DNA from: a bacterium
Lineage (GTDB): Bacteria > Zhuqueibacterota > Zhuqueibacteria > Residuimicrobiales > Oceaniaggregativiventaceae
Direction of reading: 5' to 3'
Length of the DNA: 64,000 nt
Assembly: GCA_029565675.1 (NCBI GenBank)
Contig: JAKQNP010000021.1
Location: forward strand, 97,630 to 161,629
Part shown: positions 22,682 to 38,368 of the stretch, piece by piece
Position numbering within the stretch: the stretch's first letter is position 1
Layout: each line of letters begins with the position of its first letter
Position numbers and translations under genes: made by a program
Notes under the pieces: generated by a model
What the model saw: the letters and a program-made list of their open reading frames with translations, nothing else
Databases searched by the model: none
What the model was told of the DNA's origin: nothing

Positions 22682-22966
22682 ATGATTCTGGCACGTGTCA
22701 TCGGCAGCTTGGTATCAACCGATAAACACAGCTGTTATGCAAACAAAAAGTTGATGTTGGTTCGCCCGATCGAACCCGGTGGTTCGTTTACCGGACCTGT
22801 TCAGGTTGCAGTGGACACGGTCAGTGCCGGAAAAGGCGATTGTGTGCTGGTCGCCAGCGAAGGACGGGCGGCGATGGAAATTCTCGGTTTTGATCGCCGC
22901 ATGCCGCTGCGCAGCGTGATTGTCGCTATTGTCGATCGCATCGATCACCCAAACGCCGCCAAATAG
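22682..22966 (+). CDS. BMC vertex protein (BMC-P), paralog 3
   Basis: MILARVIGSLVST...VAVDTVSAGKGDCVLVASEGRAAM. Confidence 0.8.
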   Translation: MILARVIGSLVSTDKHSCYANKKLMLVRPIEPGGSFTGPVQVAVDTVSAGKGDCVLVASEGRAAMEILGFDRRMPLRSVIVAIVDRIDHPNAAK

Positions 22967-22985
22967 GATACCGACAGCTGCTGAT

Positions 22986-23654
22986 ATGGATGCTTCTGAA
23001 CGCGAGAAATTGATCGAGTTAATCGTTGAACAAGTCCTGCGGCAATTGCAGCAAATCGACAGTCTGTCGATTTCTGCAGCAAGGCCAGCGGTCTCCTTGA
23101 ACAAACGATTGATCACCGAACAGGATGTAAAGGCTCTGGTTGCCGCCGGCAATCAAGAGGTGTTTATCGGCCCGCAAAGCCTGATCACACCATTGGCGCA
23201 GGATACCCTGCGCGCGCACCGAATCGTTGTGCAGCGCGGCTTGCCGCCCGGCTCCGCTCCCGCGGCCAAAGACAAGACTGTCGCGCTCTTGGCTGGCGAT
23301 GCAACGAGCGAGTTTCGCCGCGCGCTGGCGCAGATTCTTCAATCCAAGGGTTGCTGCGTGCAGCTGATCGAGGATCGTTTGCCCTCCTTTGCAGAGCGCG
23401 AGAAAAAAGTCCGCGAGCTGGCCCATCGGATTGCAGCCAACGAATTGCACAGTGCCGTGGTGTTGGATGGCAAGGTTTTTTGTCTCAATATCGCCGCCAA
23501 CCGCATCGAACGGGTGCGCGGCGCGATTTGCTGGGATGTATCGTCAACCCGATTGGCGCGCGACGGTTGCGGCGCCAATATTTTGTTCGTCAATGACCGT
23601 CTGATCGACCAAAGCACAATCGCCGAGATGGTACGCGTTTGGATACAGGATTAA
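22986..23654 (+). CDS. BMC-associated fusion protein: N-terminal amphipathic helix plus an EutQ-N-terminus-like segment, fused to an RpiB/LacA/LacB-family sugar-phosphate isomerase-like domain
   Basis: N-term EKLIELIVEQVLRQLQQ is encapsulation-peptide-like. LITEQDVKALVAAGNQEVFIGPQSLITPLAQDTL resembles the EutQ N-terminal region. The C-terminal half (LDGKVFCLNIAANRIERVRGAICWDVSSTRLARDGCGANILFVNDRLI) aligns to the RpiB motif GTGIGMSIAANKVxGIRAALC...HNDANVL. Confidence 0.55.
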   Translation: MDASEREKLIELIVEQVLRQLQQIDSLSISAARPAVSLNKRLITEQDVKALVAAGNQEVFIGPQSLITPLAQDTLRAHRIVVQRGLPPGSAPAAKDKTVALLAGDATSEFRRALAQILQSKGCCVQLIEDRLPSFAEREKKVRELAHRIAANELHSAVVLDGKVFCLNIAANRIERVRGAICWDVSSTRLARDGCGANILFVNDRLIDQSTIAEMVRVWIQD

Positions 23655-23683
23655 AAAGTCGCCGCCAGAGCTGTTGCGGATAG

Positions 23684-25027
23684 ATGGTCGGAACAGGATT
23701 GGAAATGAAGGAACTCGTCGAACAAGTGCGGGAGGCAGGAGTGGTCGGTTCCGGCGGCGCCGGATTCCCCACCCATGTCAAACTCGAAGCACAAGCAGAG
23801 TGGTATCTGGCTAACGGCGCCGAGTGCGAGCCCCTGATGCACAAGGACCGCGAGCTGATGGTCCACTTTGGCCGGGAAGTGGTCGACGGTTTGGAAAAGG
23901 CGGCTGATTGCGTTCAGGCACAAAAGACAGCGATCGGCATTAAATCCAAAAATCGCAACGCCATCGACGCAATTCAGGCGGCGATTCGCCGCGATTCCAT
24001 GCACGTGCACGAATTTGGCGACTTTTATCCGGCAGGCGACGAGTACGAACTTGTTTATGGCATCACCGGCCGACTGATTCCGCCGCAGGGTATCCCCCTG
24101 AATATCGGCGTGGTGGTCAACAACATCGAGACACTGGTCAATATTTCTCGTGCCGTTGCCGGCAAACCGGTCACCGACACGTTCATGACTCTGACCGGTC
24201 TGGTCAAGACCCCGCTCACCACCTGGTTACCGATCGGATTGTCGGTGCGTGAAGCTTTGCAGATCGCTGGTGGTCCGATGATCGATGATTTTGCGGTCAT
24301 GGAGAGCGGGCTGATGATGGGAAAATTGGTGCAGAATCTCGACCAGCCAATCACCAAGACCACCGGCGGGTTGATCGTCTTGCCGGCAGCTCACGATTTG
24401 ATCAAGCGCATCAGCCGGCCGACTGCAGCCCAGCACCGCATCGGCCATTCGGCTTGCGATCAATGCAGCTATTGCACCGAACTCTGCCCGCGCTACTTGC
24501 TCGGCTATGAGGTCAAGCCGCACCTGGTGATGCGCAGCCTTGGATTCACCCAGATGGGCAAGGAATTGTGGAATCAAAACGCTCTGCTCTGCTGTCAATG
24601 CGGCCTTTGTACTCTCTATGCCTGCCCCGAAGGGCTTTACCCGCGCGAGGCGTGTGTGCAGGGCATGAACGATTTGCGCAAGGCCGATAAGGGAAAGTGG
24701 ACTGGCAGCTGCGATATCCAGGTGCATCCGATGAAAAACTCGCGGCGGGTGCCGATTAAAATGTTGATGAACCGTCTGGGTGTCAGCCAATACGAATCGC
24801 ATGCCGAGTACCAGGAGATGCGCGTCGAGCCGGCGCGTGTGGTCATGCCGCTCAAACAGCATGTTGGTCAGGCAGCGGAACCGGTGGTCAAGGTCGGCGA
24901 AAGCGTTCGCCGCGACCAGCTGATCGCCGAGATACCAGATGGAAAACTGGGCGCCCGCGTGCACGCCAGTATCGACGGCAAGATCAGCGCGATCCAAAAT
25001 GAACGAATCACCATCGAACGAGGGTAG
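23684..25027 (+). CDS. PduS-like RnfC-family flavin/Fe-S electron-transfer protein
   Basis: GVVGSGGAGFPTHVKL (RnfC/NuoF-type NADH/FMN site) and two ferredoxin motifs (CDQCSYCTELCP; CCQCGLCTLYACP). The likely start is at MKELVEQV (23705). Confidence 0.8.
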   Translation: MVGTGLEMKELVEQVREAGVVGSGGAGFPTHVKLEAQAEWYLANGAECEPLMHKDRELMVHFGREVVDGLEKAADCVQAQKTAIGIKSKNRNAIDAIQAAIRRDSMHVHEFGDFYPAGDEYELVYGITGRLIPPQGIPLNIGVVVNNIETLVNISRAVAGKPVTDTFMTLTGLVKTPLTTWLPIGLSVREALQIAGGPMIDDFAVMESGLMMGKLVQNLDQPITKTTGGLIVLPAAHDLIKRISRPTAAQHRIGHSACDQCSYCTELCPRYLLGYEVKPHLVMRSLGFTQMGKELWNQNALLCCQCGLCTLYACPEGLYPREACVQGMNDLRKADKGKWTGSCDIQVHPMKNSRRVPIKMLMNRLGVSQYESHAEYQEMRVEPARVVMPLKQHVGQAAEPVVKVGESVRRDQLIAEIPDGKLGARVHASIDGKISAIQNERITIERG

Positions 25028-25032
25028 CGAGC

Positions 25033-25584
25033 ATGCAGATGCGCGCAGTGGGATTGATCGAATTGAACAGCATCGCTGCCGGTATCGACGTGGCGGATGC
25101 CATGCTGAAATCCGCGCAGGTGGAACTTGTGCTGGCGCGAACGATCTGCTCGGGCAAATATCTGGTGATCGTCGGCGGCGAAGTGGCGGCCGTGCGCGCC
25201 AGCGTTGATGCCGGTGCGCAGCGGTGGCCGGGCACGGTGATCGATTTGATGGTGATTCCCAATGTGCATCCTTCGATTTTTCCGGCCATCGCCGGATCCA
25301 ATACGATCGACAAACCGGGTTCTCTCGGGGTGATCGAGTCGTTCAGCGTCGGCTCGCTGATCGAGGCGGCTGACATTGCGGTCAAGACAGCGGCAATCGA
25401 AGTGATCGAAATCCGTCTGGCCATGGCTCTGGGCGGCAAGGCCTTTGTCACCCTGACCGGCGATGTCTCGGCCGTGCGAGCTGCTGTGGATGCCGGCGCC
25501 GCCCATGTGGCGCAAAAGGGTTTGCTGGTCAACAGCGTGGTGATCCCAGCCCCCAGCAAGCAGCTCTATAGAGATTATATTTAA
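25033..25584 (+). CDS. PduT-like tandem-domain BMC shell protein (BMC-T) with a conserved pore cysteine, a putative [4Fe-4S] site
   Basis: Two BMC (PF00936-like) repeats within 183 aa. It is near-collinear with Salmonella PduT (GLIELNSIAAGIDVADAMLKSA..., TICSGKY versus PduT TICPGKF). Confidence 0.85.
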   Translation: MQMRAVGLIELNSIAAGIDVADAMLKSAQVELVLARTICSGKYLVIVGGEVAAVRASVDAGAQRWPGTVIDLMVIPNVHPSIFPAIAGSNTIDKPGSLGVIESFSVGSLIEAADIAVKTAAIEVIEIRLAMALGGKAFVTLTGDVSAVRAAVDAGAAHVAQKGLLVNSVVIPAPSKQLYRDYI

Positions 25585-25660
25585 GCAGCCCGGTCTGCGA
25601 GACAGAAACGCACTCCTTTGTCGCCAGTGCGGCGAAGAGCAGTGAAGCAGGAGTATCTTC

Positions 25661-26329
25661 ATGTCCATTTCCAATGATGAACTCACCCGTAAGGTCGAAA
25701 CCATCGTCCGGCAGGTGATCGATTCGCTCTATCCTGCAACCAATGATTCGGCCATTCCTTTGGGCATTTCGGCGCGGCACCTGCACATCTGCCAGGAGGA
25801 TCTGGAAATTTTGTTCGGCAAAGGCGCGCAGTTGACCAAAATGCGCGATCTGAAACAACCGGGTGAATTCGCCGCCAACGAGACGGTCACCGTGGTCGGA
25901 CCGAACCGCAGGATGTTCGAAAAGGTGCGCATCCTCGGCCCTACCAGACCGCAGACTCAGGTCGAGATGGCCTATTCAGATGGCCGTTTCCTGGGCATCG
26001 AGTTGCCGCATCGAATTTCCGGCAACATCAAAGGCTCCGCGCCCATCACGCTGATCGGTCCGGAAGGTGTTTTGCGCCTTACAGAAGGTGCGATTCGGGC
26101 GATGCGCCACCTGCACTGCAGTCCGCAAGACGCCGCCCGTCTGGGCATCAGGGATGGGGAGGAGGTCAGTGTGCGCACCGAAGGGGAGAGCAGCGTCACC
26201 TTTAATCATGTGGTGGTGCGCATCAAGGACAAATTGAAACTCGAAATGCATGTGGATACCGACGAGGCCAATGCCGCCGGTTTGACTGCGGCCAATGCCT
26301 TTGGTTATCTGGTCAAGGAGCAAAAATAG
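25661..26329 (+). CDS. pduL: PduL-type phosphotransacylase (phosphate propanoyl/acyl-transferase)
   Basis: Two PTAC repeats (GISARHLHICQED...; CSPQDAARLGIRDGEEV). The N-terminal amphipathic helix LTRKVETIVRQVIDSL is a typical PduL encapsulation peptide. Confidence 0.85.
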   Translation: MSISNDELTRKVETIVRQVIDSLYPATNDSAIPLGISARHLHICQEDLEILFGKGAQLTKMRDLKQPGEFAANETVTVVGPNRRMFEKVRILGPTRPQTQVEMAYSDGRFLGIELPHRISGNIKGSAPITLIGPEGVLRLTEGAIRAMRHLHCSPQDAARLGIRDGEEVSVRTEGESSVTFNHVVVRIKDKLKLEMHVDTDEANAAGLTAANAFGYLVKEQK

Positions 26330-27751
26330 ATGGCAGATTTTGATCCAACCCTGGTCGCAGAAATCGTCAGGCGAGTGATAACCGAGCTGAACCACAGCAC
26401 TGGTGCAGCAGCCGGGACGACCGGGGTCACCAACGGCATATTTGCCACTGTGGATCAAGCCTTTGCCGCTGCGGAAAAGGCACAAAAGATCTGGCATGCG
26501 ATGCCGCGTGCCGATAAAGCGAAAGTCATCGCTGCCTTGCGCCAGACCATGCATGATCATGCGGAAGAATTTGCCCGCCGGGCGCAACAAGAAACCGGCA
26601 TGGGACGGGTCGAAGACAAGATCGCCAAACACCACAATGCCGCTGACGCCACACCGGGACTGGAAGACCTCGAGGTGCGTTCCTGGAGCGGTGACAAGGG
26701 TTTGGTGGTGGAAGAATACGCCCCTTATGGCGTCATCGCGGCGATCACCCCGTCGACCCATCCGATTCCGGTGCTCTTGAACAGCTCGATCATCATGATT
26801 GCGCCGGGCAACGCTGTCATTTTCAATGTTCATCCAGCGGCCAAAAATGTTTCCGCCTATGCGATGGAAATCTTTAACCGCACCATTGTCGACAACGGCG
26901 GCCCGGCCAACCTGATCTCCATGCTGCGGGAGCCGACCATGGAAGGGGCCAACGAGCTTTTCCATCATCCGCAGATCCGTCTGATCGCTGCCACCGGCGG
27001 TCCAGGCCTGGTCAAGGCGGCTTTTGCAGCCGGCAAAAAAGTGGTGGCGGCCGGACCGGGCAATCCACCGGTGGTGGTGGATGTGACTGCCGATCTCGAT
27101 CGCGCCGCCCGAGAGATAATCAAAGGCGCCTCTTTCGACAACAACATCCTTTGTATTGCGGAAAAAGAAGTGTTCGTCGTCGATGGCGTTTTCGACCGGT
27201 TTATGCAAGCCATGGCGAATGCCGGAGCGGTACGGCTGAACGCGGCGCAAATCGAAATGCTCACGGCCAAGGCGTTCGGCAAGAACGACAAGGGCCAGGT
27301 CTTTGTCAGCCGCGACTTGATCGGCAAAAACGCCAATGTCCTGGCTGCGATCGCCGGCCTGACGCTTCCCGACCAGGTGCGGATTCTGTATGGCGAAACC
27401 GACAAGAATCATCTCTTTGTGCAGGAAGAGCAAATGATGCCTTTCCTGCCCATCGTCCGCTGTCCATCAGTGGAACAGGCCATTGAATGGTCGGTGGAAG
27501 CCGAGCATGGCTTCGGTCATACGGCCATGATCTATTCCAATCATCTCGAAACCATCACCCGGTTTACCCGTGCGATCGATACCGATATCGTGGTGGTCAA
27601 TGGACCGAGTGGTGCAGGCAATGGCGGTTATTCTGGCGAAGGGTATTTTTCCCATACCATCGCCAGTCCCACGGGAGAGGGTATTTGCACGCCGCGCGAT
27701 TTCGCCCGGGTCCGCCGATTGGCGATCTATGAAAATTTACAGGTCGTCTGA
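26330..27751 (+). CDS. CoA-acylating aldehyde dehydrogenase (PduP/EutE-like) with an N-terminal encapsulation peptide
   Basis: AldDH fold with the catalytic Cys in ILCIAEKE. The N-terminus DPTLVAEIVRRVITEL is followed by a Gly/Ala/Thr-rich linker. Confidence 0.85.
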   Translation: MADFDPTLVAEIVRRVITELNHSTGAAAGTTGVTNGIFATVDQAFAAAEKAQKIWHAMPRADKAKVIAALRQTMHDHAEEFARRAQQETGMGRVEDKIAKHHNAADATPGLEDLEVRSWSGDKGLVVEEYAPYGVIAAITPSTHPIPVLLNSSIIMIAPGNAVIFNVHPAAKNVSAYAMEIFNRTIVDNGGPANLISMLREPTMEGANELFHHPQIRLIAATGGPGLVKAAFAAGKKVVAAGPGNPPVVVDVTADLDRAAREIIKGASFDNNILCIAEKEVFVVDGVFDRFMQAMANAGAVRLNAAQIEMLTAKAFGKNDKGQVFVSRDLIGKNANVLAAIAGLTLPDQVRILYGETDKNHLFVQEEQMMPFLPIVRCPSVEQAIEWSVEAEHGFGHTAMIYSNHLETITRFTRAIDTDIVVVNGPSGAGNGGYSGEGYFSHTIASPTGEGICTPRDFARVRRLAIYENLQVV

Positions 27752-27841
27752 TTGTCCGCTTGATAGGGCATTCAAACGAAAACAAGTTAAACCAAAGGAT
27801 AACCAACGGATCTTATTCCACAAATTGAGGAGAATTCAGTC

Positions 27842-28129
27842 ATGGCACAAGAAGCATTGGGCATGGTCGAAACCCGCGGTTTTATCGCGGCAATTGAAGC
27901 GGCTGATGCGATGGTCAAGGCGGCCAATGTCGAATTGGTCGGCAAGGCCCAGGTCGGGAGTGGTTTGGTTTCTATCATCGTTCGCGGCGATGTGGGTGCT
28001 GTGAAAGCAGCCACCGACGCCGGTGCAGCCGCTGCGGAAAAAGTGGGCGAGCTGGTTTCTGTCCATGTGATTCCCAGACCGCATGCCGATGTCGAAAAAT
28101 TGCTGCCTGCCAAAGGCGTCAAAGCGTAA
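27842..28129 (+). CDS. BMC-H hexamer shell protein (PduA/EutM-like)
   Basis: [31 protein letters not shown]...[17 protein letters not shown] is a canonical single BMC domain. Confidence 0.9.
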
Positions 28130-28141
28130 AGGAGTTGCGCG

Positions 28142-28924
28142 TTGCAAAAATCCCTATTTGCCTTGAAGCGCGATCTGGTCGAGGTAGGGCGACGCGTCTA
28201 CGACCATGGTTTTGTCGCGTCCAATGACGGCAACATCAGCGCCCGGGTCGATAACGACCGCGTTTTGATTACTCCGACCGGAGTGAGCAAAGGTTTTATG
28301 AAGCCGGAAGAGATGGTGCTGGTGGACATGGACGGCAAGGTTTTGTCCAACACAGGCAAACCTTCTTCTGAAGTGTTCATGCATCTGCGGATCTACAAGG
28401 ATCGCCCCGATGTCAACAGCGTCTGTCATGCCCATCCGCCTTATGCGACGGGTTATGCGGTGGCCGGTCTGGCGATGGATAAATGCGTTTTGCCCGAAGT
28501 CATCATCGTTCTCGGCGAAATCCCTCTGGTTGAATACGGTACTCCCGGCACCGAAGAGTTTTATACACCGGTGCTCAAGTATCTCAAAGATCACGACGCG
28601 TTTCTGTTGGCCAACCACGGAGCCCTGACCATCGGCAAAGACATTTACAATGCCTACTTCAAGATGGAGACCCTTGATCACGCGGCCAAAATTCAGTTCA
28701 TCGCCAAACAGCTTGGCCATCTCAACGTGCTCAAGAGCCAGGACGTGGACAAGCTGATGGAGATTCGCAAACGGGCCGGCATTGCCACCTCCTCGCCCTG
28801 TCTCAGCTGCGAGGAAGACGGTTCCTGTGACATCACCACCGCCTGGTCTGGACCGGAGAACCAACCGGACCGCGAACAGCTGGTGCGCCAGGTGACTGAA
28901 GCCGTGCTCCGCCAGTTGAAATAA
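28142..28924 (+). CDS. class II aldolase (L-fuculose/rhamnulose-1-phosphate aldolase family) with a ~45-aa C-terminal extension
   Basis: TTG start. SNDGNISARV...LITPTGV...HAHPPYATGYAV...LANHGALTIG is FucA-like, with the zinc His ligands present. The extension SSPCLSCEEDGSCDITT...REQLVRQVTEAVLRQLK ends in an amphipathic helix. Confidence 0.85.
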   Translation: MQKSLFALKRDLVEVGRRVYDHGFVASNDGNISARVDNDRVLITPTGVSKGFMKPEEMVLVDMDGKVLSNTGKPSSEVFMHLRIYKDRPDVNSVCHAHPPYATGYAVAGLAMDKCVLPEVIIVLGEIPLVEYGTPGTEEFYTPVLKYLKDHDAFLLANHGALTIGKDIYNAYFKMETLDHAAKIQFIAKQLGHLNVLKSQDVDKLMEIRKRAGIATSSPCLSCEEDGSCDITTAWSGPENQPDREQLVRQVTEAVLRQLK

Positions 28925-29070
28925 CACCACAGCCGGACAAACGAAGAGATCCGTTTCGTCCGGCTGTTTTACTGATCCCGCCCAATTGCCGTTTTGCCGC
29001 TCGAAACATCTTGACAGGCCGGCGGCGAACGCCGCATTACTTTGTCTGAAACCTTAAGAGGTTTGCTGCG

Positions 29071-30282
29071 ATGAAACGACCCTTGCACCCGCTCAGGATA
29101 ATCGTCTGCAATATCGGCTCCAGCAGTTTCAAATTCCAATTGCTCGACATGCCGGCGGAACGCCAGCTGGCGCGTGGCTACACCGAGCGCGTTGGCAGCG
29201 ACGATGCCATCATCACCTACTGGGTCGGCGATCGTCAAGTCCTGCAAACCCGAATTGCGGTGCCCAGCCATCGCCAGGCCGTTCAGCACGCCCTGACCTT
29301 TCTGACCGATCCCGAAATCGGTCTGCTCGACAATCTCGATGCCATCGACGGCATCGGATTCAAGACCATTCAGGCAGGCGACAAAAACGGCTCGGTCCTT
29401 CTGGATGACGCGGTTCTTCAGGCAATGGAGGATTACCGCGATCTGGCACCGGCCCACAATCCGCCTTATCTCACGGCTATCTATATGTTTCGCGAAATGC
29501 TGCCCAAAACACCGCTGGTGGGTGTGTTTGAACCGGGTTTTCACCTGAACATGCCCCTGCATGCCCGCGTTTACGGCACGCCCTATGAATGGATCGAAAA
29601 ATATGGGGTCAAGAAATACGGCTATCACGGTGCCTCGCACCGCTATGTCACTGCCGAAACCGTGCGCGTGCTCGGCTTACCGGCCGACAACCATCGCGTC
29701 ATCACCTGCCATCTGGGCGGGTCGTCGTCGCTTTGCGCCTACAAAAATGGCAAATCCATCGATACCTCCATGGGATTCACGCCGCAATCGGGATTGATCC
29801 AGGGCACCCGCATAGGCGACATGGATCCGTTTGTTCTGCCTTATATCATGGTGAAAAAGGGCATCACCCTGGAACAGGCGCTGGCCGAGTGTTCAAAAAG
29901 CGGCGGGCTCAAGGGTTTGTCCGGAATTTCAGCGGACATGCGCGAGATCAAGGAGGCGATCGCCCGGGGCGATGCGCGTGCCAAACTGGCTTGGGATAAG
30001 TTTATCTATGACATCAAACGCTACATTGGCGAGTATCTCGTTCTGCTCGAAGGGGTGGACGCCGTGACCTTTACCGGTGGCATCGGCGAAAACAATGCCG
30101 ATCTTCGCGAGGAGGTGCTGTCGGCACTGCGATTCCTCGGCCTTGAGTTGGACAAGGCGGCAAATGCGGCGCATGCACAATTGATCACCACCTCAAAGTC
30201 CAAAATCCGGGCGCTGGTGCTGAAAACCGATGAAGAGATCGTGGTGGCGCGCGAGACGGTTCGGGTCATGTCCGGCAGTTGA
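29071..30282 (+). CDS. ackA: acetate (acyl) kinase
   Basis: [16 protein letters not shown] (the ATP-binding N-terminus of AckA) and [10 protein letters not shown]. Confidence 0.9.
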
Positions 30283-30310
30283 GCGCCTGAACGATCAAAA
30301 CCAAGGAATA

Positions 30311-32131
30311 ATGATGATGAACAAGGAACAGGAATTCAAAAAAACGGCTTCGGTGCAACGCCTGGCAGGTACACTGCCAAAAATCGGTATCCGGCCGGTC
30401 ATCGACGGCCGTCGTCGCGGGGTGCGCGAATCGCTGGAAGATCAGACGATGGGCATGGCCAGGCGTGCCGCCGCTTTTCTCGAAAAGAATCTGCGCCATC
30501 CCAATGGTCTGCCGATTGAATGCGTGATTGCCGATACCTGCATCGGCGGTGTGGCGGAAGCGGCAGCAGCGGCAGATAAATTTGCCCGCACCGGTGTCGG
30601 CGTGTCGCTGACCGTCACTCCGTGCTGGTGCTACGGCACCGAAGTGATGGACGCCGACCCCCTGATTCCCAAGGCGGTGTGGGGATTCAATGGAACCGAG
30701 CGGCCCGGCGCTGTCTATCTGGCCGCCGCCCTGGCCGGCTATGCGCAAAAAGGGTTGCCCGCGTTCGGCATCTATGGCCGCGATGTGCAGGACGCTGGCG
30801 ACGATTCCATACCCGCCGATGTGGCGGAAAAATTGCTGCGTTTTGCCAAAGCCGCACTCGCCGTGGCGGAAATGCGCGGTAAATCCTATCTCTCCATGGG
30901 ATCGGTGTCCATGGGTATCGCCGGCTCGGTGGTGAACGACGATTTTTTTCACAGCTGGCTCGGCATGCGCAACGAGACCATCGATATGTCGGAATTCGTG
31001 CGCCGCTTTGAGGAAAAGATCTATGATCGCGAGGAATACGAGCGCGCTCTGACCTGGGTGAAAAAATATTGCCCCGAAGGGCCCGACCTCAATCCCGTTG
31101 ACCAGCAGAACTCGCGCCAACGCAAGGATTGGGAATGGGAAACCGTGGTCAAGATGACCCTCATCGCCCGCGATCTCATGGTCGGCAATCCGGTTTTGGC
31201 TGACCTCGGTTACGGCGAAGAAGCTCTGGGCCACAACGCTCTGCTCGCCGGATTCCAGGGCCAACGCCAGTGGACCGATCACTTTCCCAACGGCGATTTC
31301 ATGGAGGCGATTCTCAACTCCTCCTTTGATTGGAACGGCATACGCCAGCCCTATCTGGTGGCTACCGAAAACGACAGCCTGAACGGTACGGTCATGCTCT
31401 TTGGCCATCTGCTCACCGACACGGCGCAGGTCTTTGCCGACGTGCGCACCTATTGGAGCCCACAGGCGATCAAACGCGTCACCGGCAAAGCCGCTGCAGG
31501 CAAGGCGCAGGATGGCATCATCCATCTCATCAACTCGGGTTCAGCGGCGCTGGACGGCTGCGGCCGCCAGCAGCGCAACGGCCAACCGGCGATGAAACCC
31601 TTTTGGGATATCGAACCGCAAGAGGTCAAGGCTTGCCTCGAGGCCACCCGCTGGTGTCCGGCCAGTCTGGGCTATTTCCGCGGTGGCGGTTTTTCTTCCC
31701 AGTTCGTCACCGTCGGCGAGATGCCGGTGACCCTGTCGCGGCTCAATTTGGTCAAAGGCCTGGGCCCTGTGCTGCAGATCGCTGAAGGCTATACGGTCGA
31801 ATTGCCCGACGATATGCATCAGATTCTCAATCAGCGCACCGATCCCACCTGGCCCACCACCTGGTTTGCGCCGATTCTCACCGGAACCGGAGCGTTTTGC
31901 GACGTTTATTCTGTCATGGCCAACTGGGGCGCCAACCACGGTTCCCTCGGCTATGGCCATTTCGGCGACCGCCTGATTACCCTGGCCAGCCTGCTGCGCA
32001 TTCCCGTGTGTATGCACAACGTTGCCGAAGAACGGATCTATCGGCCGCATGCGTGGAGTGCCTTTGGCACCCAGGACCTGCAAGGTGCCGACTATCGCGC
32101 CTGTCAGGCCTATGGGCCGCTTTATGGTTGA
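30311..32131 (+). CDS. fucI: L-fucose isomerase
   Basis: Near-collinear with E. coli FucI ([24 protein letters not shown]..., [45 protein letters not shown]). The start is at the MMMNKEQ cluster (30311-30319). Confidence 0.9.
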
Positions 32132-32162
32132 GTGCAGAACACAACAGAACAATGGGAAAAAA

Positions 32163-33647
32163 ATGGCCGGAGTTAATTATCTCGCCTTTGATTTTGGCGC
32201 CACCAGCGGACGCACGATTCTGGGCACCCTTGGCGATAAACTTGAATTGCGCGAACTAACCCGCTTTCCCAATCGGCAGATCCGCGCCCTGGGAACAACC
32301 TATTGGGATTTTCTCGATCTCTTCGAGCAGATCAAGCAGGGCCTGGTCTGTGCCGCTGGTGAGGGCCGGGCGATCCGCGGCATCGCAGTCGATACCTGGG
32401 GCGTGGATTTCGGCCTGCTGGCAAGCGATGGAAGCCTGCTCGGCAACCCGGTTTCCTATCGCGATCCGCGCACCGATGGCATGATGGAAAAGGTTTTTGC
32501 CCGTATTGCGCGCGACCGGATCTATCGCCTGACCGGCATCCAATTCATGCAACTCAACACTCTCTATCAGCTTTTTGCGCTGGCGCAAAGCCGCTCGCCG
32601 CAACTCGAGGCGGCCGAGACGCTGCTGTTTATGCCAGACCTGTTCAACTATTTTCTCACCGGCGAAAAGCGCACCGAGTACACCATCGCATCCACTTCCC
32701 AGCTGCTGAATGCGCAAAAGCGCAGCTGGGAAAGAGAAATTCTGACCGCGCTCGATGTGCCGCACTCGATCCTCACACCCATCGTGCGGCCGGGAACCGT
32801 GGTCGGGCCGCTGCTGGACGATCTCGCCAAAGAGACCGGTCTGGGCAGAGTGGAGGTCATCGCCGGCGCCGCTCATGATACCGCCGCAGCGGTGGCCGCC
32901 ACGCCGATGCAATCGCCCGGTGCCGCCTATCTCAGCTCCGGCACCTGGTCGCTCCTCGGCGTCGAAGCCGCCGAACCAGTGATCACCGTTGAGTCCCTGC
33001 ATCGCAATTTCACCAACGAAGGCGGAGTCAACGGCACCGTTCGATTTCTCCGCAATGCCATGGGTATGTGGCTGCTGGAAGGGTGCAAGAGCAGCTGGGA
33101 ACGGCAGGGCGGAAAATATTCCTATCCCGAACTGGTGGCTCTGGCCGAAAAAGCCGAACCGTTTCGCAGCATCGTCGACCCGGATGCGGATCTCTTTATC
33201 CATCCGGAGGAGATGCCGGCGGCGATCGATGAGTTCTGCCGCCGTACCGGTCAGCCGGTACCGGACAGCATCGGCGCCTTTGTGCGCTGTGTGTTCGAGA
33301 GCCTTGCCCTGAAATACCGCTTTATCGTCGAGGGAATCGAGGCCATGCGGCCAATACCCATCGATGTCCTGCACATCGTCGGCGGTGGTTCGCAGAATGA
33401 ATTGCTCAACCGCTTTACCGCCGATGCTCTGGGCATTCCGGTGGTTGCCGGACCTATCGAAGCCACAGCCATCGGCAACATCATGGTGCAGGCTGTGGCC
33501 ACCGGCCAGCTCGCCTCGATCGCCGAAGGCCGGGAGCTGGTGGCACGATCGTTCCCTATGAAGACGGTAGAATCCCGCGACACCGCGCAGTGGGAAGAGC
33601 AGTACCAGCGCATCCGTCCGATGTTTGTGCAGGGATTGGAGGGATAA
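32163..33647 (+). CDS. rhaB: rhamnulokinase-like FGGY-family sugar kinase
   Basis: LAFDFGATSGR, IAVDTWGVDFGLL, VSYRDPRTDG, GIQFMQLNTLYQLFAL, YLSSGTWSLLG and HIVGGGSQN follow E. coli RhaB closely. The start is at MAGVNYL. Confidence 0.85.
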   Translation: MAGVNYLAFDFGATSGRTILGTLGDKLELRELTRFPNRQIRALGTTYWDFLDLFEQIKQGLVCAAGEGRAIRGIAVDTWGVDFGLLASDGSLLGNPVSYRDPRTDGMMEKVFARIARDRIYRLTGIQFMQLNTLYQLFALAQSRSPQLEAAETLLFMPDLFNYFLTGEKRTEYTIASTSQLLNAQKRSWEREILTALDVPHSILTPIVRPGTVVGPLLDDLAKETGLGRVEVIAGAAHDTAAAVAATPMQSPGAAYLSSGTWSLLGVEAAEPVITVESLHRNFTNEGGVNGTVRFLRNAMGMWLLEGCKSSWERQGGKYSYPELVALAEKAEPFRSIVDPDADLFIHPEEMPAAIDEFCRRTGQPVPDSIGAFVRCVFESLALKYRFIVEGIEAMRPIPIDVLHIVGGGSQNELLNRFTADALGIPVVAGPIEATAIGNIMVQAVATGQLASIAEGRELVARSFPMKTVESRDTAQWEEQYQRIRPMFVQGLEG

Positions 33648-33649
33648 AA

Positions 33650-33745
33650 TACGTGTTAACGTGCTAACGTGCTAACGTGCTAACGTGTTAACATGCTAAC
33701 GTGTTAACGTGTTAAAGTGCTAACGTGTGAACGTGCGAACGTCCT
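33650..33745 (+). repeat. tandem octamer repeat (ACGTGYTA)x~12 in the 3' UTR of the BMC operon
   Basis: Units read directly: acgtgtta acgtgcta acgtgcta acgtgcta acgtgtta acatgcta acgtgtta acgtgtta aagtgcta acgtgtga acgtgcga acgtcctg. Confidence 0.8.
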
Positions 33746-33749
33746 GATG

Positions 33750-33785
33750 CAGCTGTCGTCCACCAATTGAGCGACAGCTTTTTTT
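33750..33785 (+). terminator. Rho-independent terminator of the BMC/fucose operon
   Basis: Stem AGCTGTCG / CGACAGCT with a 13-nt loop, followed by a T7 run. Confidence 0.7.
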
Positions 33786-33972
33786 ATTGCCACGTCCTTC
33801 AAGTCGTGGGATTTGGAAGACTGGCCCCCCTTTTGTTTCAGGAGGTTTTAGCCCCCGTATTTGCAGAGTAAAACGCTGCAGCCGCGGCCAATCGTTGTTG
33901 AAAAAGCTCTCCGTCGCGTCGAGGGAGAGTCCGCACGGTTGACCGGCGGCTCAAGAGAAAACGAGTTCGAAG

Positions 33973-34368
33973 ATGGAGCAAAAACAAGTAAATCAACCGC
34001 TAAAGGTTTTTTTTATCTTCATTGGCAGCCTGTGTGTGGCGTTGGGTGTGGTTGGGATGTTCTTGCCGGTTTTGCCAACAACGCCGTTTCTTCTTCTGGC
34101 TGCTTTTTGTTATGCCCGCAGCTCAGAGCGGTTCTATCGCTGGCTGTTAAACAATCGATGGTTTGGAGAATACATCAAAAACTATCGCGAAGGCAAAGGA
34201 ATACCCATTCAGCAAAAGATATTCACCCTGCTGCTGCTGTGGCTGACGATTGGATCCACAGTAGTTCTGGCGATTTCACAAGTTTGGCAGCGATTGTTTC
34301 TATTTGCAATAGCCCTGGGGGTTACGATTCACCTGCTAACGATTAGGACAGATCGGCCGGGTCGCTGA
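33973..34368 (+). CDS. DUF454 (YbaN-like) small inner-membrane protein
   Basis: FLPVLPTTPFLLLAAFCYARSSERFYRWLLN is the YbaN family signature. Confidence 0.65.
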   Translation: MEQKQVNQPLKVFFIFIGSLCVALGVVGMFLPVLPTTPFLLLAAFCYARSSERFYRWLLNNRWFGEYIKNYREGKGIPIQQKIFTLLLLWLTIGSTVVLAISQVWQRLFLFAIALGVTIHLLTIRTDRPGR

Positions 34369-34556
34369 TCTTCCAAGGTTCACAACCAGTCATTCTGCTT
34401 TTATAGAGAATCCCACCGAACAGCGAGAGCACATGCGGAATCGTTGCGGAGTTGAATTGGGAAATGTGCTTGCTTTGCATCGAGTTCGGGACTATTTTAA
34501 TGGAGAAAGGTAAATTGTTTTGAGATTCGAGTCGTGATGTTTTTGTCCGAGAACTG

Positions 34557-35855
34557 ATGGATGTGTTGATGGAAGAAACCAACTTGCCCAGAGATGAGCT
34601 GCATCGGCTCAAAATTGCGGTCGAAGAGCTCAGCATCCTCAACGATCTGGCGGTCGCCGCCGGCAGCACACTGGAAGAGGAAAAAATGCTCGACATCATC
34701 GTGCACAAGAGCATCAAGGCTTTGCATGCCGAGCAGGGCGCCATCCAACTGATCACCGAACAGGCCGACTCTCCCCTCAGGACTCTGATACGGGAGTTGG
34801 ATTCGAGCAGCCGAATTTTAGACTATAAAGTGGGCATCAACATCACCGGCTGGGTGCTCAAATACCAAAAGCCGTTGGTCATTGCCGATCTCGCGACCGA
34901 CACCCGTTTTCTGACGACAGAACAGGAGCGTTCAGAAATCCATTCGCTTCTCTGCGTGCCCATCCGCCATCGCGACCAGCTTTTAGGAGTGCTGATGGTG
35001 GTCAACCGCAAGGGCAGTGAGGCTTTTAGCGAAGATGACCAGCGTTTGCTCTCGATCATCGCTTCTCAATCCGGTCAACTCATCCACAATATGAAATTGC
35101 AGCAATCGGAGCTGGAAGAACGGCGACTCAAACAAGAATTGGAGTTGGCGCACAAGATCCAGCAAAAGCTCTTGCCAAAAGAAGATCCGACCTGCAGATT
35201 GTTTGAAGTCGCCGCTTGTTATGAACCGGCCGAAGCCGTAGCGGGTGACTATTACGATTATTTTTACCGCGATGAACAATTGAGTGGAATTGTCATTGCG
35301 GATGTCTCCGGGCATGGCACTTCGGCGGCGATGGTGATGACTCTGGTCAAGGGTATTCTCTGTTCTGTGACACAAAAAAATCAGTCGCCCGCCCAAATCC
35401 TTACAGAAGTCAATGCAATTCTTTGCAAAATACTGCCCCGTCAGATGTTCGTCACCATGATCTTCATACAGCTCGATCCCAGCCATAAACGTTTGCGTTT
35501 TGCCAGCGCCGGCCATACGCCGTTGGTTTTCTATCAAAACCAGAGCAATTCTTGCCAGATGATGGAATGCCGAGCGACGGCTCTGGGCCTCAAATCCGAG
35601 GTTCAATATGAAGAAAAAGAGCTGGCTGTTGCGTCGGGTGATTTCATCTTCGCTTATACCGATGGCGTAACAGAGGCGGCTGACGCAGAACACCAGCTGT
35701 TCGGTGAAGAAAGGCTTATTCACTCGGTGTGCGCCTCCTGTGCCGAAAGCGCATCGGATATCATTTGTCGTGTGCGCCAGGATGTGCGTGATTTCCTCGG
35801 CCATACCTTGCATGAAGATGATATCGCCATGATCGGCATCAAAATAAAACCTTGA
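34557..35855 (+). CDS. GAF-domain PP2C-type (SpoIIE/RsbU-like) serine/threonine phosphatase
   Basis: GAF region (INITGWVLKYQKPLVIADL...), then PP2C motifs (VAGDYYDYF, IADVSGHG, ASAGH, TDGVTEA). Confidence 0.75.
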   Translation: MDVLMEETNLPRDELHRLKIAVEELSILNDLAVAAGSTLEEEKMLDIIVHKSIKALHAEQGAIQLITEQADSPLRTLIRELDSSSRILDYKVGINITGWVLKYQKPLVIADLATDTRFLTTEQERSEIHSLLCVPIRHRDQLLGVLMVVNRKGSEAFSEDDQRLLSIIASQSGQLIHNMKLQQSELEERRLKQELELAHKIQQKLLPKEDPTCRLFEVAACYEPAEAVAGDYYDYFYRDEQLSGIVIADVSGHGTSAAMVMTLVKGILCSVTQKNQSPAQILTEVNAILCKILPRQMFVTMIFIQLDPSHKRLRFASAGHTPLVFYQNQSNSCQMMECRATALGLKSEVQYEEKELAVASGDFIFAYTDGVTEAADAEHQLFGEERLIHSVCASCAESASDIICRVRQDVRDFLGHTLHEDDIAMIGIKIKP

Positions 35856-35964: not shown

Positions 35965-36792
35965 ATGATCGGTCGAACCATTTCCCATTATCAAATCCTC
36001 GCCAAACTCGGCGAAGGCGGCATGGGGATTGTGTATCAAGCCGAGGACCTCAAACTCAAGCGCCCCGTTGCGTTGAAATTTTTACCGCCTGCCTTGACGG
36101 CTGACTCCGAGACCAAAAAACGATTCATACATGAAGCCCGAACCGCCTCCTCGTTGCAGCACAGCAATATCTGTACAATCCATGATATCGACGAAACCGA
36201 CGACGGACAGGTGTTTATCGTCATGGATTGCTATCAAGGCATGACCTTAAAAGAACGACTCGCACAGGGTAGCATGCCGACCGAAGAGGTTGTTCGCATC
36301 GCCGTGCAAATCGCTGCAGGTCTTGCGGAGGCACATGAAAAGGGAATCGTGCATCGCGACATCAAACCGGCCAATATCATGATCACGGACGCAGGTGTTG
36401 TCAAGATTCTGGATTTTGGACTCTCCAAGCTCGCAGGACACCCGGGCATTACGCGAACCGGGACAACCATCGGCACGCCGGCCTATATGGCGCCTGAGCA
36501 AGCACAGGGCAAAGAATCTGACTGCCGAACAGACATCTGGTCTTTCGGCGTCGTTTTGTTCGAAATGCTCAGCGGCCGACAGCCTTTTGCAGCCGAATAC
36601 GATCAGGCCGTTCTCTTTTCAATCGTCAATGAAGAACCCGCAGAGATCGGCAATTTTCGTGCGGATATTCCAGAGCACCTCATCGCTCTCTGCAAACAGT
36701 GCCTGGAAAAGGACAAATCGCCCCCAATCCATGGTGAAAGTGCTGGAATGGCTGAAAACAAGAGAGTCGCGATCCACGAAAAATGTGTTTAG
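35965..36792 (+). CDS. Hanks-type Ser/Thr protein kinase, catalytic domain portion; the gene appears frameshifted at a C5 run (36721-36725)
   Basis: YQILAKLGEGGMGIVYQAED...ALKFL; HRDIKPANIM; DFGLSK; GTPAYMAPE. The frame ends 23 codons after CLEKDKSP. Confidence 0.8.
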   Translation: MIGRTISHYQILAKLGEGGMGIVYQAEDLKLKRPVALKFLPPALTADSETKKRFIHEARTASSLQHSNICTIHDIDETDDGQVFIVMDCYQGMTLKERLAQGSMPTEEVVRIAVQIAAGLAEAHEKGIVHRDIKPANIMITDAGVVKILDFGLSKLAGHPGITRTGTTIGTPAYMAPEQAQGKESDCRTDIWSFGVVLFEMLSGRQPFAAEYDQAVLFSIVNEEPAEIGNFRADIPEHLIALCKQCLEKDKSPPIHGESAGMAENKRVAIHEKCV

Positions 36793-38368
36793 CACGCCGA
36801 ATCGATGGAAAATTTCCAAGATTTCAATGATCTTTTCCCTGGTCTTATTGATTTTGGTATCCGGATGGCATATCGGTACTCGTTTTCTGCGTTCCGGCCG
36901 CTCTGCAAACCAGAGCGTGCGCATTGCAGTCCTGCCTTTTCAAAACCAGACTGGGGACAAAGCGAGCGATTTGCCGATCCTCATTCAGTCGGTAATCGTT
37001 GGCGAATTGCTGGGTGTAGATGAACTAAAAATAATCGACCCTTACAGCCTGAACACGATGATCGAAAGTTCTTTCGCCGGTTTTGAGTTGAAGAGAGAAA
37101 CGCCGTTTTTTCACGCGCTGCGCAATCTTGAAATTGCTTTTATCATCAATGGCGCCATCGTTAAAACCGGAGACCAGTATTTGATTCAATCGAGTATAAC
37201 CAATCTCTTGAATTCGGAAATCATCTTTACAAACAGCATCGCGATAGAAAATGAAGATGTCCTTCCGATTCTTCGAAATCTGGCGCAAAAAATATTATAT
37301 TGTTTTCAGATCAAAATCTTGGCCTATGATCAGGAGAAGGACCTGAGACCCTGGCTGAAAACCGATTCACAGAATCTTTCTGCCATTCGAGCTTTTATTC
37401 AGGCCAGTCGGTATAACTATCAAAGAGAATCCGAACTTGCTGAACGATACCTCCGTCAAGCCATCGAACTCGATTCCGCTTTTATCTCGCCGCGAATTTG
37501 GCTTATCTCCAAGTTGGTCGAGAAGGACGATCTCACGGAAGCTTCCTTACACTATCGGCAGCTTGTTGCCCTTCAGCTGCGAGCCAGTCCTTTCGAACAG
37601 GTAATGATCGATTGGGCAGGCGCCTGTATCGAACAAGATAGTGCTAAGCAGGCGCGCTATTTAGCCCTGGCTCTGGATTATTCGCCCCATAACGATATTT
37701 TGCTTTTTTCGCTGGCCCGACTGCGCTACATCATGGGCGATAATCAGGAAAGCATTGAGGCCTTGAACGATCTGATTAAATTGAAAACCAAATTTTCTCC
37801 GACCTATTACCTGTTGGGAGCGAATTACTTTCAGCTTGAAAGGTATAAAGATGCCCGGGAAACGCTGGAAGGAGCGCTGGTGTACAAACCTGTTGAACCC
37901 TTGATCTATAGTTTGTTGGCCAGATTGAGCATCTTCGACGGCGATACTGCCAAAGCCCTGTACTATGAAAAACTGTATTTGAACCGTATCAGCGAACAAA
38001 GAATGCCCCTGAGCAAGGCCTATGAAAATCTCGCCCTGCAAAACCATGCCCATGATCGGTATGATGCGGCGATTGGCTATTTCCGTTTGGCCATTGCAGC
38101 AGATGAGAATCGTGCAGAATATCACAAAGGATTGGCGGACGTTTTGTTCGAGAAGGGATTGGCGGATTCAGCGGCAGGCGAATACAGAACGGCTCTGAGG
38201 CTCGATCCGAACGACGCCGATTCGCATTATAGACTTGGCCGGATTTTTCAACAAAAAAATACAGCCGATCTGGCCATCAGCCATTATCGTGCTTATCTGC
38301 AACTGGATTCATCGAGCACAAAGTCGACGATGGTCAGAAAGTTTTTAAAGCAATTGCAGCCCGACTAG
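36719..38368 (+). CDS. C-terminal portion of the same Ser/Thr kinase gene (juxtamembrane segment, TM helix, IAVLPF-motif TolB-like region and TPR repeats), in the +1 frame relative to the kinase domain
   Basis: ...VKVLEWLKTRE...ISMIFSLVLLILVSGW (TM), IAVLPFQNQTGD, then multiple TPR-like repeats (AIGYFRLAIAADENRAEYHKGLADVLFEKG...). Confidence 0.7.
   Translation, partial: RPQSMVKVLEWLKTRESRSTKNVFSTPNRWKISKISMIFSLVLLILVSGWHIGTRFLRSGRSANQSVRIAVLPFQNQTGDKASDLPILIQSVIVGELLGVDELKIIDPYSLNTMIESSFAGFELKRETPFFHALRNLEIAFIINGAIVKTGDQYLIQSSITNLLNSEIIFTNSIAIENEDVLPILRNLAQKILYCFQIKILAYDQEKDLRPWLKTDSQNLSAIRAFIQASRYNYQRESELAERYLRQAIELDSAFISPRIWLISKLVEKDDLTEASLHYRQLVALQLRASPFEQVMIDWAGACIEQDSAKQARYLALALDYSPHNDILLFSLARLRYIMGDNQESIEALNDLIKLKTKFSPTYYLLGANYFQLERYKDARETLEGALVYKPVEPLIYSLLARLSIFDGDTAKALYYEKLYLNRISEQRMPLSKAYENLALQNHAHDRYDAAIGYFRLAIAADENRAEYHKGLADVLFEKGLADSAAGEYRTALRLDPNDADSHYRLGRIFQQKNTADLAISHYRAYLQLDSSSTKSTMVRKFLKQLQPD

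Follow-up and report, generated by a model that had tools for sequence, protein, structure and literature searches.

Short non-coding repeats are known in bacteria in several forms with which the locus described here can be compared. STRRs number about 100 per genome, while the REPs of enterobacteria are imperfect palindromes of about 35 bp mobilised by RAYT transposases. In filamentous cyanobacteria the STRRs are short tandem units capable of forming hairpins, for which a stabilisation of transcripts has been proposed (PMC2670836). The hmw promoters of Haemophilus influenzae have between them a 7-bp repeat, (ATCTTTC)n, the length of which tunes transcription and leads to phase variation (PMC8262952). 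Geobacter metallireducens exhibits dispersed sites of three to five tandem 7-8-bp units, often paired on opposite strands, which have been proposed as sites of regulators (PMC2700814). Two plasmid systems use arrays of comparable size for protein binding. On plasmid TP228, the RHH protein ParG binds the parH/OF arrays (centromere and operator); parH, about 100 bp long, has 12 degenerate boxes spaced by 8 bp, of which 11 are direct and one is inverted, with one RHH dimer on each box (PMC3130281). Omega of pSM19035 binds 7-bp heptads, 7 to 10 of them in a contiguous row and either direct or inverted (PMC9499535).

The array that we analyse here is located in a 64-kb stretch of bacterial DNA (hereafter the window), directly downstream of the last gene of a BMC operon. 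Positions of the features and the alleles of the array are collected in Table 1.

Table 1. The octanucleotide array, its neighbouring features and its three alleles
Feature	Coordinates in the window	Strand	Size	Basis or occurrence
Rhamnulokinase-type FGGY sugar kinase, last operon gene	32163..33647	+	494 aa	Pfam FGGY_N, FGGY_C
Octanucleotide tandem array	33651..33746	.	12 units	TRF, motif counts, alleles of 11, 12 and 17 units
Operon intrinsic terminator	33751..33786	+		Stem AGCUGUCG(U)/(.)CGACAGCU, internal 2-bp extension, then U7 run
DUF454/YbaN family protein, next downstream gene	33973..34368	+		Pfam DUF454; named YbaN family protein
Allele A			12 units, 96 bp	Window, L085, L087, L088, L089
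Allele B			11 units	L086, L091; one CTA unit fewer; ACATGCTA reads ACGTGCTA
Allele C			17 units, 136 bp	L117, L118; unit order differs in the 5' and middle part

The BMC fucose/rhamnose operon occupies positions 22920-33647. Pfam assigns the genes 5' of the array, in order, to an RpiB-like protein, an RnfC/Nuo51-like protein, a tandem BMC-domain shell protein, PduL, an aldehyde dehydrogenase, a class II aldolase, an acetate kinase, an L-fucose isomerase and the FGGY kinase. We take this gene set to be a fucose/rhamnose microcompartment of the kind first described in Planctomycetes. The host itself is probably an FCB-group organism and not a planctomycete, as suggested by proteins with the T9SS Por_Secre_tail domain encoded near the BMC operon on two flanking loci (L128, L130) and by the nearest kinase homologues in the protein database, which are from Aminicenantes, KSB1 and Calditrichota. 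The kinase, annotated in the source as rhamnulokinase, has an identical gene call of 494 aa in independent assemblies. Besides this kinase, the Pfam-annotated neighbours of the array are the YbaN/DUF454 gene, a GAF-SpoIIE phosphatase and a Ser/Thr kinase.

The array begins 3 nt after the TAA stop codon of the kinase gene at 33645-33647 (context ...GGA GGG ATAA AAT) and ends 5 nt before the hairpin of the terminator. This hairpin (33751-33779) exhibits an RNA folding energy of -14.7 kcal/mol (z = -4.0, with 0 of 200 shuffles as good), and remains intact when the whole region is folded. A simple terminator scan missed it, probably as its loop was counted as 13 nt, above the limit of 8 in the scan. 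No sigma-70-like promoter was found in 32500-35000. With the stop codon on its 5' side and a strong intrinsic terminator on its 3' side, the array should be present on the operon transcript, in a 3' untranslated stretch. The initial annotation had placed the repeat after a rhaB-like stop codon and before the terminator of a BMC operon, and both the Pfam assignments and the terminator fold agree with this. The repeat of a phase-variable contingency locus is found inside a coding sequence or a promoter, and that of hmw between promoters. In contrast, the array in the window is 3' of a stop codon and 5' of a terminator, with no apparent expression switch.

Read directly from the sequence, the array comprises 12 in-register units of 8 bases (96 bp). 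It had been annotated at 33650-33745; the array is real, while its true start and end are at 33651 and 33746. The order of units from 5' to 3' is ACGTGTTA, ACGTGCTA (three times), ACGTGTTA, ACATGCTA, ACGTGTTA (twice), AAGTGCTA, ACGTGTGA, ACGTGCGA and ACGTCCTG. Units 1 to 5 thus end in TTA, CTA, CTA, CTA and TTA, and units 7 and 8 both in TTA. The initial annotation was right about twelve copies in register; its description of C/T at position 6 as the sole variation did not hold, five of the twelve units being degenerate with changes beyond that position. The 5' and middle part of the array is homogeneous and its 3' end degenerate (TGA, CGA, CCTG). The consensus ACGTGYTA amounts to a core AACGTG followed by two variable bases. 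Variation is focused on unit positions 6 and 7, positions 1, 2, 4 and 8 being nearly fixed. The same pattern of variable and nearly fixed positions is common to the three alleles and to the arrays of other phyla described below, once the cores used for ascertainment are excluded.

Such short head-to-tail copies, in register and above chance expectation, are the mark of a VNTR or simple sequence repeat. The sole substantial tandem array that TRF reports in the 64 kb is at 33651-33742 (period 8, 11.5 copies, 85% matches, 0% indels, score 121). All seven exact copies of ACGTGYTA in the window are inside the array, against an expectation of 1.03 +/- 1.02 for the whole window. A 16-mer double unit with up to three mismatches gives 11 matches, again all inside the array (0.40 expected). 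Beyond the array, TAACGTG occurs twice, the expectation being 2.67. Stop codons in all six frames rule out a coding potential of the array, and a Rho-utilisation site is ruled out by its composition, which is neither C-rich nor G-poor.

Using the YbaN/DUF454 protein as an anchor, we retrieved the locus by exact-sequence look-up on 23 contigs from ENA, NCBI, JGI and Logan assemblies, and a kinase variant of 99% identity led to two further assemblies. Every YbaN-anchored contig spanning the site carries the array. A collapsed or chimeric repeat, which the initial annotation had left as an option, can be practically dismissed because independent assemblies reproduce the array. The identical 12-unit sequence is present in ENA, NCBI, JGI and Logan assemblies from different samples, the 11- and 17-unit alleles are each found in at least two assemblies, and the internal unit variants make the assembly path unique. 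Moreover, at 88-136 bp the arrays fall below the value of 141 that the k141 names of the ENA contigs suggest. On the side of an artefact, two short-k Logan contigs (L090, L092) end within the array, which is evidently hard for some assemblers; breaks of this sort are to be expected from short-k assembly.

The comparison of copy number across related assemblies, which had been proposed as a check, yields 11, 12 and 17 units. The differences between the three alleles consist of whole units and lie within the homogeneous part of the array, the last three units and the terminator, hairpin and T-run alike, being identical in all of them. Alleles A and C are found among the sister assemblies ERZ27257428, ERZ27257434 and ERZ27257442. 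The flanks of the three alleles exhibit 99.0-99.3% identity between strains. Copy number therefore differs between close strains with conserved flanks, and the array is a genuine hypervariable VNTR, as foreseen by the proposal of a candidate variable-number (slipped-strand) locus. In this respect it resembles the VNTR loci of MLVA and the hmw loci, which likewise exhibit intergenic units of 7-8 bp in 10 to more than 20 copies with whole-unit differences between close strains.

The alleles also differ at the point where the kinase stop codon meets the array. This junction reads ...TTGGAGGGATAAAAT-ACGTG in the window (33640-33651) and ...TTGGGGGGGTAAAA-ACGTG in L117 (2676-2688), where the terminal residues LEG* become LGG* and the array is displaced by 1 nt. 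Variation thus extends to the array border, where it is elevated.

A further difference between strains is seen at about 36705-36715, inside 35965-38368, where the 5-bp sequence CAAAT occurs once in the window strain and in L085 and twice in L086. The two-copy version encodes the Ser/Thr kinase and TPR parts as a single protein of 802 aa, whereas the one-copy version yields two reading frames, a kinase of 275 aa and a TPR ORF that overlaps it. The difference represents a frameshift specific to the strain or else a second polymorphism caused by slippage.

We consider that the locus is best explained as an ordinary slippage-driven VNTR, akin to a minisatellite and STRR-like in form, that is tolerated in the 3' UTR and has no specific role in the BMC operon, a reading to which we assign a probability of roughly 0.6. 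The existence of the array, its position, its non-coding nature, its polymorphism in copy number and its absence from the retrieved kinase loci of other organisms are direct observations, whereas slippage as the cause and the lack of a function are inferred. According to this explanation, the array would change its length by gain or loss of whole 8-bp units in its homogeneous 5' and middle part, through replication slippage or unequal recombination between near-identical units. The partial self-complementarity of the unit possibly aids these changes, and the degenerate 3' units would remain fixed. The site would tolerate the array because neither the coding sequence nor the terminator is interrupted. 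A sequence-specific role in the BMC operon would be lacking; at most, the array would provide generic, imperfect G-U-rich hairpins at the 3' end of the mRNA. The presence of one or two CAAAT copies inside a kinase gene in the same set of strains supports the slippage explanation. Against it, the combination of varying positions 6 and 7 with nearly fixed positions 1, 2, 4 and 8 has the look of a binding unit composed of a core and a spacer, although slippage, by spreading a few variant units, could give rise to a similar pattern.

On the sequences compared, the array does not belong to the conserved parts of the BMC operon, because no kinase locus at 62% identity or below has one. Among 24 metagenome relatives of the kinase (41-56% identity), 21 loci include downstream sequence, and none of the 21 exhibits a tandem array after the kinase. 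The locus of a 61% homologue (L119) likewise has no array after the kinase. In the protein database, no relative of the kinase falls between the cluster of the own species (99%) and 62% identity. Within the source genome, neither a second array of period 7 or 8 nor an excess of the motif was found in about 81 kb (the 64-kb window and about 17 kb at its ends), and no conserved flanking module was found around the array. Like the STRRs, the array consists of short tandem units (7 bp there, 8 bp here) in non-coding DNA, intergenic or within an operon, and is capable of forming hairpins. Unlike the STRRs, it has another unit length and sequence and a non-cyanobacterial, FCB-like host. STRR-like dispersal would entail many arrays in the same genome, of which about 81 kb yielded this single one. 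REP/BIME elements of enterobacteria are similarly non-coding, located after stop codons or between operon genes, transcribed, hairpin-forming and sometimes mosaic. Unlike these palindromes with their hundreds of copies, the array is made of tandem octamers, is single in about 81 kb, and is accompanied by no evident palindrome or RAYT-type enzyme.

Arrays with the same core are found in other genomes. We scanned one genome per GTDB species (185,579 genomes, 596 Gb) for three consecutive units, and obtained 82 loci (L001-L082) with the same unit type, AACGTG plus two variable bases, in about 45 genomes of at least eight phyla. About 27 of these loci belong to one Abditibacteriales MAG (SKYG70), and five or six to each of two Acidobacteriota MAGs. 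Several Chloroflexota and Bacteroidota genomes exhibit two or three loci each. Single loci are found in Myxococcales, Latescibacterota, a CPR bacterium, a Planctomycetota MAG and others. In all, nine genomes of four phyla carry arrays at multiple loci. Cultured isolates are among the carriers, including Niastella soli MAH-29 and Flavilitoribacter nigricans DSM 23189. The arrays have 3 to 22 units of the types ACGTGCYA, ACGTGTTA, ACGTTCCA or ACCTGCCA, and are almost always intergenic. The initial annotation had regarded the occurrence of the same array at many unrelated loci as evidence against a special character of the repeat; this occurrence is seen across other genomes (82 loci) and is not seen within the approximately 81 kb examined here. 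A literature search with the exact repeat sequences returned no relevant paper, and octanucleotide, heptanucleotide and '8 bp' are not among the terms of a large survey of short tandem repeats.

The loci bearing these arrays are also rich in other arrays of the same periods. In 524 kb of L001-L084, TRF (at least three copies) finds 143 arrays of period 8 and 26 of period 7, of which about 37 have unrelated units. Other periods, including 3, 6 and 9-15, are rare in the loci of the array-bearing genomes. Neither the control loci nor the window, beyond its own array, exhibits such accompanying arrays. That nearly all additional arrays with unrelated units have a period of 7 or 8 is not predicted by pure slippage, and speaks against the tolerated VNTR, as does the recurrence of same-core arrays in many phyla with nine multi-locus genomes.

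Random sequence predicts about one match in 596 Gb, while octamer tandem arrays of any unit have some background rate. A control with scrambled octamers in a viral collection gave low counts: two loci for the real unit, representing one array found twice, against 1, 7 and 0 for the scrambled units. The scramble giving seven loci (ATGCGYTA) turned out to be related to the array family, so that the control is partly confounded. With its low counts and this confounding, the viral control does not demonstrate a preference for ACGTGYTA over other octamers. The nine multi-locus genomes and the non-uniform conservation of unit positions hint at something more than chance, and neither is proof of it.

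The orientation of the arrays relative to genes bears on a role at the RNA level. For 87 arrays in other genomes, we took stop-to-stop frames of 180 codons or more to represent genes. Where the neighbours are co-directional, the ACGTG strand is sense in 17 cases and antisense in 17; a further 11 arrays are flanked by convergent genes and 4 by divergent genes, and 3 fall inside frames. A first, cruder set of ORFs, in which the arrays themselves supply stop codons, gives a similar picture (19 sense, 22 antisense). This lack of strand bias argues against a strand-specific RNA motif. The initial annotation had suggested that the transcribed repeat could be a platform for binding of a protein or an sRNA. 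More generally, as in REP/BIME elements and as proposed for cyanobacterial STRRs, hairpins or a periodic ACGUG motif in the 3' UTR might block 3'-to-5' decay or bind such partners. The position of the array between the stop codon and the terminator, which should place it on the transcript, is in keeping with such an element. Units of the TTA type are self-complementary through G-U pairs, and are predicted to fold into a 15-bp hairpin that leaves the terminator hairpin undisturbed. STRR arrays, moreover, have been proposed to raise the stability of transcripts (PMC2670836). However, the RNA fold of the array is no better than that of dinucleotide shuffles (z = -1.2 for allele A and -1.4 for allele C), and the DNA fold is weaker and equally indistinguishable from shuffles (z = -1.9 and -0.9). 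With RNA and DNA, both strands and two alleles considered, no array fold beats the shuffles, the terminator alone being significant. An Rfam search of the region at E-values up to 10 and of the whole window at the gathering threshold gave no hit above threshold and only sub-threshold noise from miRNA models. A structured or curated RNA element would be expected to match an Rfam model or to have a conserved fold that beats shuffles; the array exhibits neither. It is also absent from the retrieved kinase loci of other organisms, and its copy number and unit order vary between near-identical strains. With no Rfam match, no fold beyond shuffle level, no conservation, no stable copy number and no strand preference, the binding platform on RNA is not supported, and we regard any RNA-level function in the 3' UTR as quite improbable.

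The same features can be read at the level of DNA. The array might be a docking platform for a small RHH-like dimeric protein that binds cooperatively, with one dimer per 8-bp unit, reading AACGTG and leaving two bases as a spacer. By analogy with the plasmid systems, the geometry is suggestive: 12 units in 96 bp match the parH and Omega arrays (about 100 bp, about 12 short degenerate boxes at 7-8-bp spacing), and, as in RHH-bound arrays, at least four contiguous 7-8-bp boxes with a conserved core (here positions 1-5 and 8) and a variable spacer (positions 6-7) are present. The arrays elsewhere occur in either orientation, in places as head-to-head inverted pairs, with no strand bias relative to genes and with periods almost solely of 7 and 8, all of which would suit a protein bound to DNA. 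The differences are nevertheless considerable. The parH and Omega arrays are on plasmids, beside the genes of their binding proteins and overlapping promoters, and their units (ACTC or WATCACW) are unrelated to AACGTG. The array in the window is chromosomal, inside a transcription unit upstream of a terminator rather than at a promoter, and no RHH (cognate or other), ParA or ParB-type partition protein is found among its Pfam-annotated neighbours. Its copy number is free to range from 11 to 17, no second site occurs in about 81 kb, and no binding protein is identified for any AACGTG-type array. The scrambled-unit control, finally, provides no evidence of a favoured unit. We thus hold a docking function of the array to be quite improbable.

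Alternatively, the array could be one copy of a sequence-specific dispersed family, STRR-like or BIME-like, that was seeded or propagated through horizontal transfer or some dedicated mechanism and did not arise by local slippage. The 82 loci in about 45 genomes, with their concentration in the single Abditibacteriales MAG, are in favour of such a family. So are the inclusion of some arrays in larger conserved mosaics (Niastella soli L055 and the Acidobacteriota flanks described below) and the richness of array-bearing genomes in 7- and 8-bp arrays. As with STRRs, the ACGTG-type arrays of other genomes are dispersed at many loci alongside heptamer arrays. In the host of the window, however, a single array in about 81 kb lacks a conserved flanking module; scrambled octamers give viral counts similar to that of the real unit (1, 7 and 0 against 2); and in a search of 596 Gb any octamer array would be expected to recur to some extent. 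We know of no enzyme associated with such a family. The membership of the window array in a family of this kind is unlikely in our view.

A broader proposal is that the ACGTG-core octamer arrays and the 7- and 8-bp arrays of other units found beside them make up one cross-phylum class of chromosomal elements. The class would comprise arrays of Chloroflexota, Abditibacteriota, Acidobacteriota, Bacteroidota and the FCB-like host of the window, and its members would be bound along their length by a small protein that attaches to DNA cooperatively, with one dimer per 7-8 bp, as a chromosomal counterpart of the parH and Omega arrays. The window array would then be one site of the class, its copy number tuning occupancy. 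This proposal, drawn by analogy, is very unlikely as matters stand. AACGTG-NN arrays, nearly always with periods of 7 or 8 bp, fill intergenic DNA in several unrelated phyla, some as long inverted pairs or mosaics. If the unit specificity holds against proper controls, the unexplained STRR phenomenon of cyanobacteria would extend to much of the bacterial tree and indicate a common cause, either a binding protein or a mechanism generating repeats, which can be tested in cultured isolates.

For the BMC operon itself, the array matters little: the pathway has not conserved it, and it is probably neutral. With its alleles of 11, 12 and 17 units it can readily serve to tell strains of this uncultured digester bacterium apart, and its site is a warning, as short-k assemblies break there.

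Several of the arrays in other genomes exhibit an organization of their own. In the Abditibacteriales MAG SKYG70, most arrays form head-to-head pairs, (CGTTGGCA)n followed by (AACGTGCC)n, which amount to long palindromes; examples are found in L018 (1713-3041), L038 (6832-7064) and L051 (2026-2195 and 3481-3642). Up to six arrays are present in one 4-kb contig of this MAG. The inverted pairs resemble the paired sites of Geobacter metallireducens, from which they differ in that the latter have only 3-5 units with the genome-specific consensus GTTGCTYN / TCTCCGTS.

In Niastella soli MAH-29 (L055), a mosaic intergenic element occurs three times within 8 kb (2556-2815, 3288-3523 and 6781-7077). 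It starts with a heptamer array (GACGGCA or ATGGGCA, 9-15 copies), followed by a conserved linker with a small GC hairpin, an octamer array of the CTCAATAA or CAATAACT type, a second conserved linker ...CTGGTCAACTGATCAAC, and finally the array of AACGTGTN, the AACGTG type. Conserved flanks are also seen around the arrays of L012, L031 and L061, and of L050, L065 (both arrays), L078 and L079, in two Acidobacteriota MAGs; examples are ...GGAAGYMAGAAG[array]ACGTTTATTTATGATACAAAATTGGAAAAT and [array]AAAGCCTTCG...GGATRAATGG. These flanks suggest larger dispersed elements common to the two MAGs.

At L071 (1757-1870, minus strand), an array of seven units occupies the loop of a perfect 14-bp inverted repeat (AATCAGAGCAGTTG ... 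CAACTGCTCTGATT). In L026, from a Chloroflexaceae MAG, a heptamer array (GTGAAAC)n abuts an octamer array (GTGCTAAC)n at about 4659-4716. The (GTGAAAC)n and GTGNNAAC units presumably resemble parS half-sites. Two IMG/VR contigs (L083, L084) exhibit a 10-unit ACGTGTTA array that begins right at a TAA stop codon, with a GC segment resembling a hairpin and a T-run after it, a placement like that of the array in the window.
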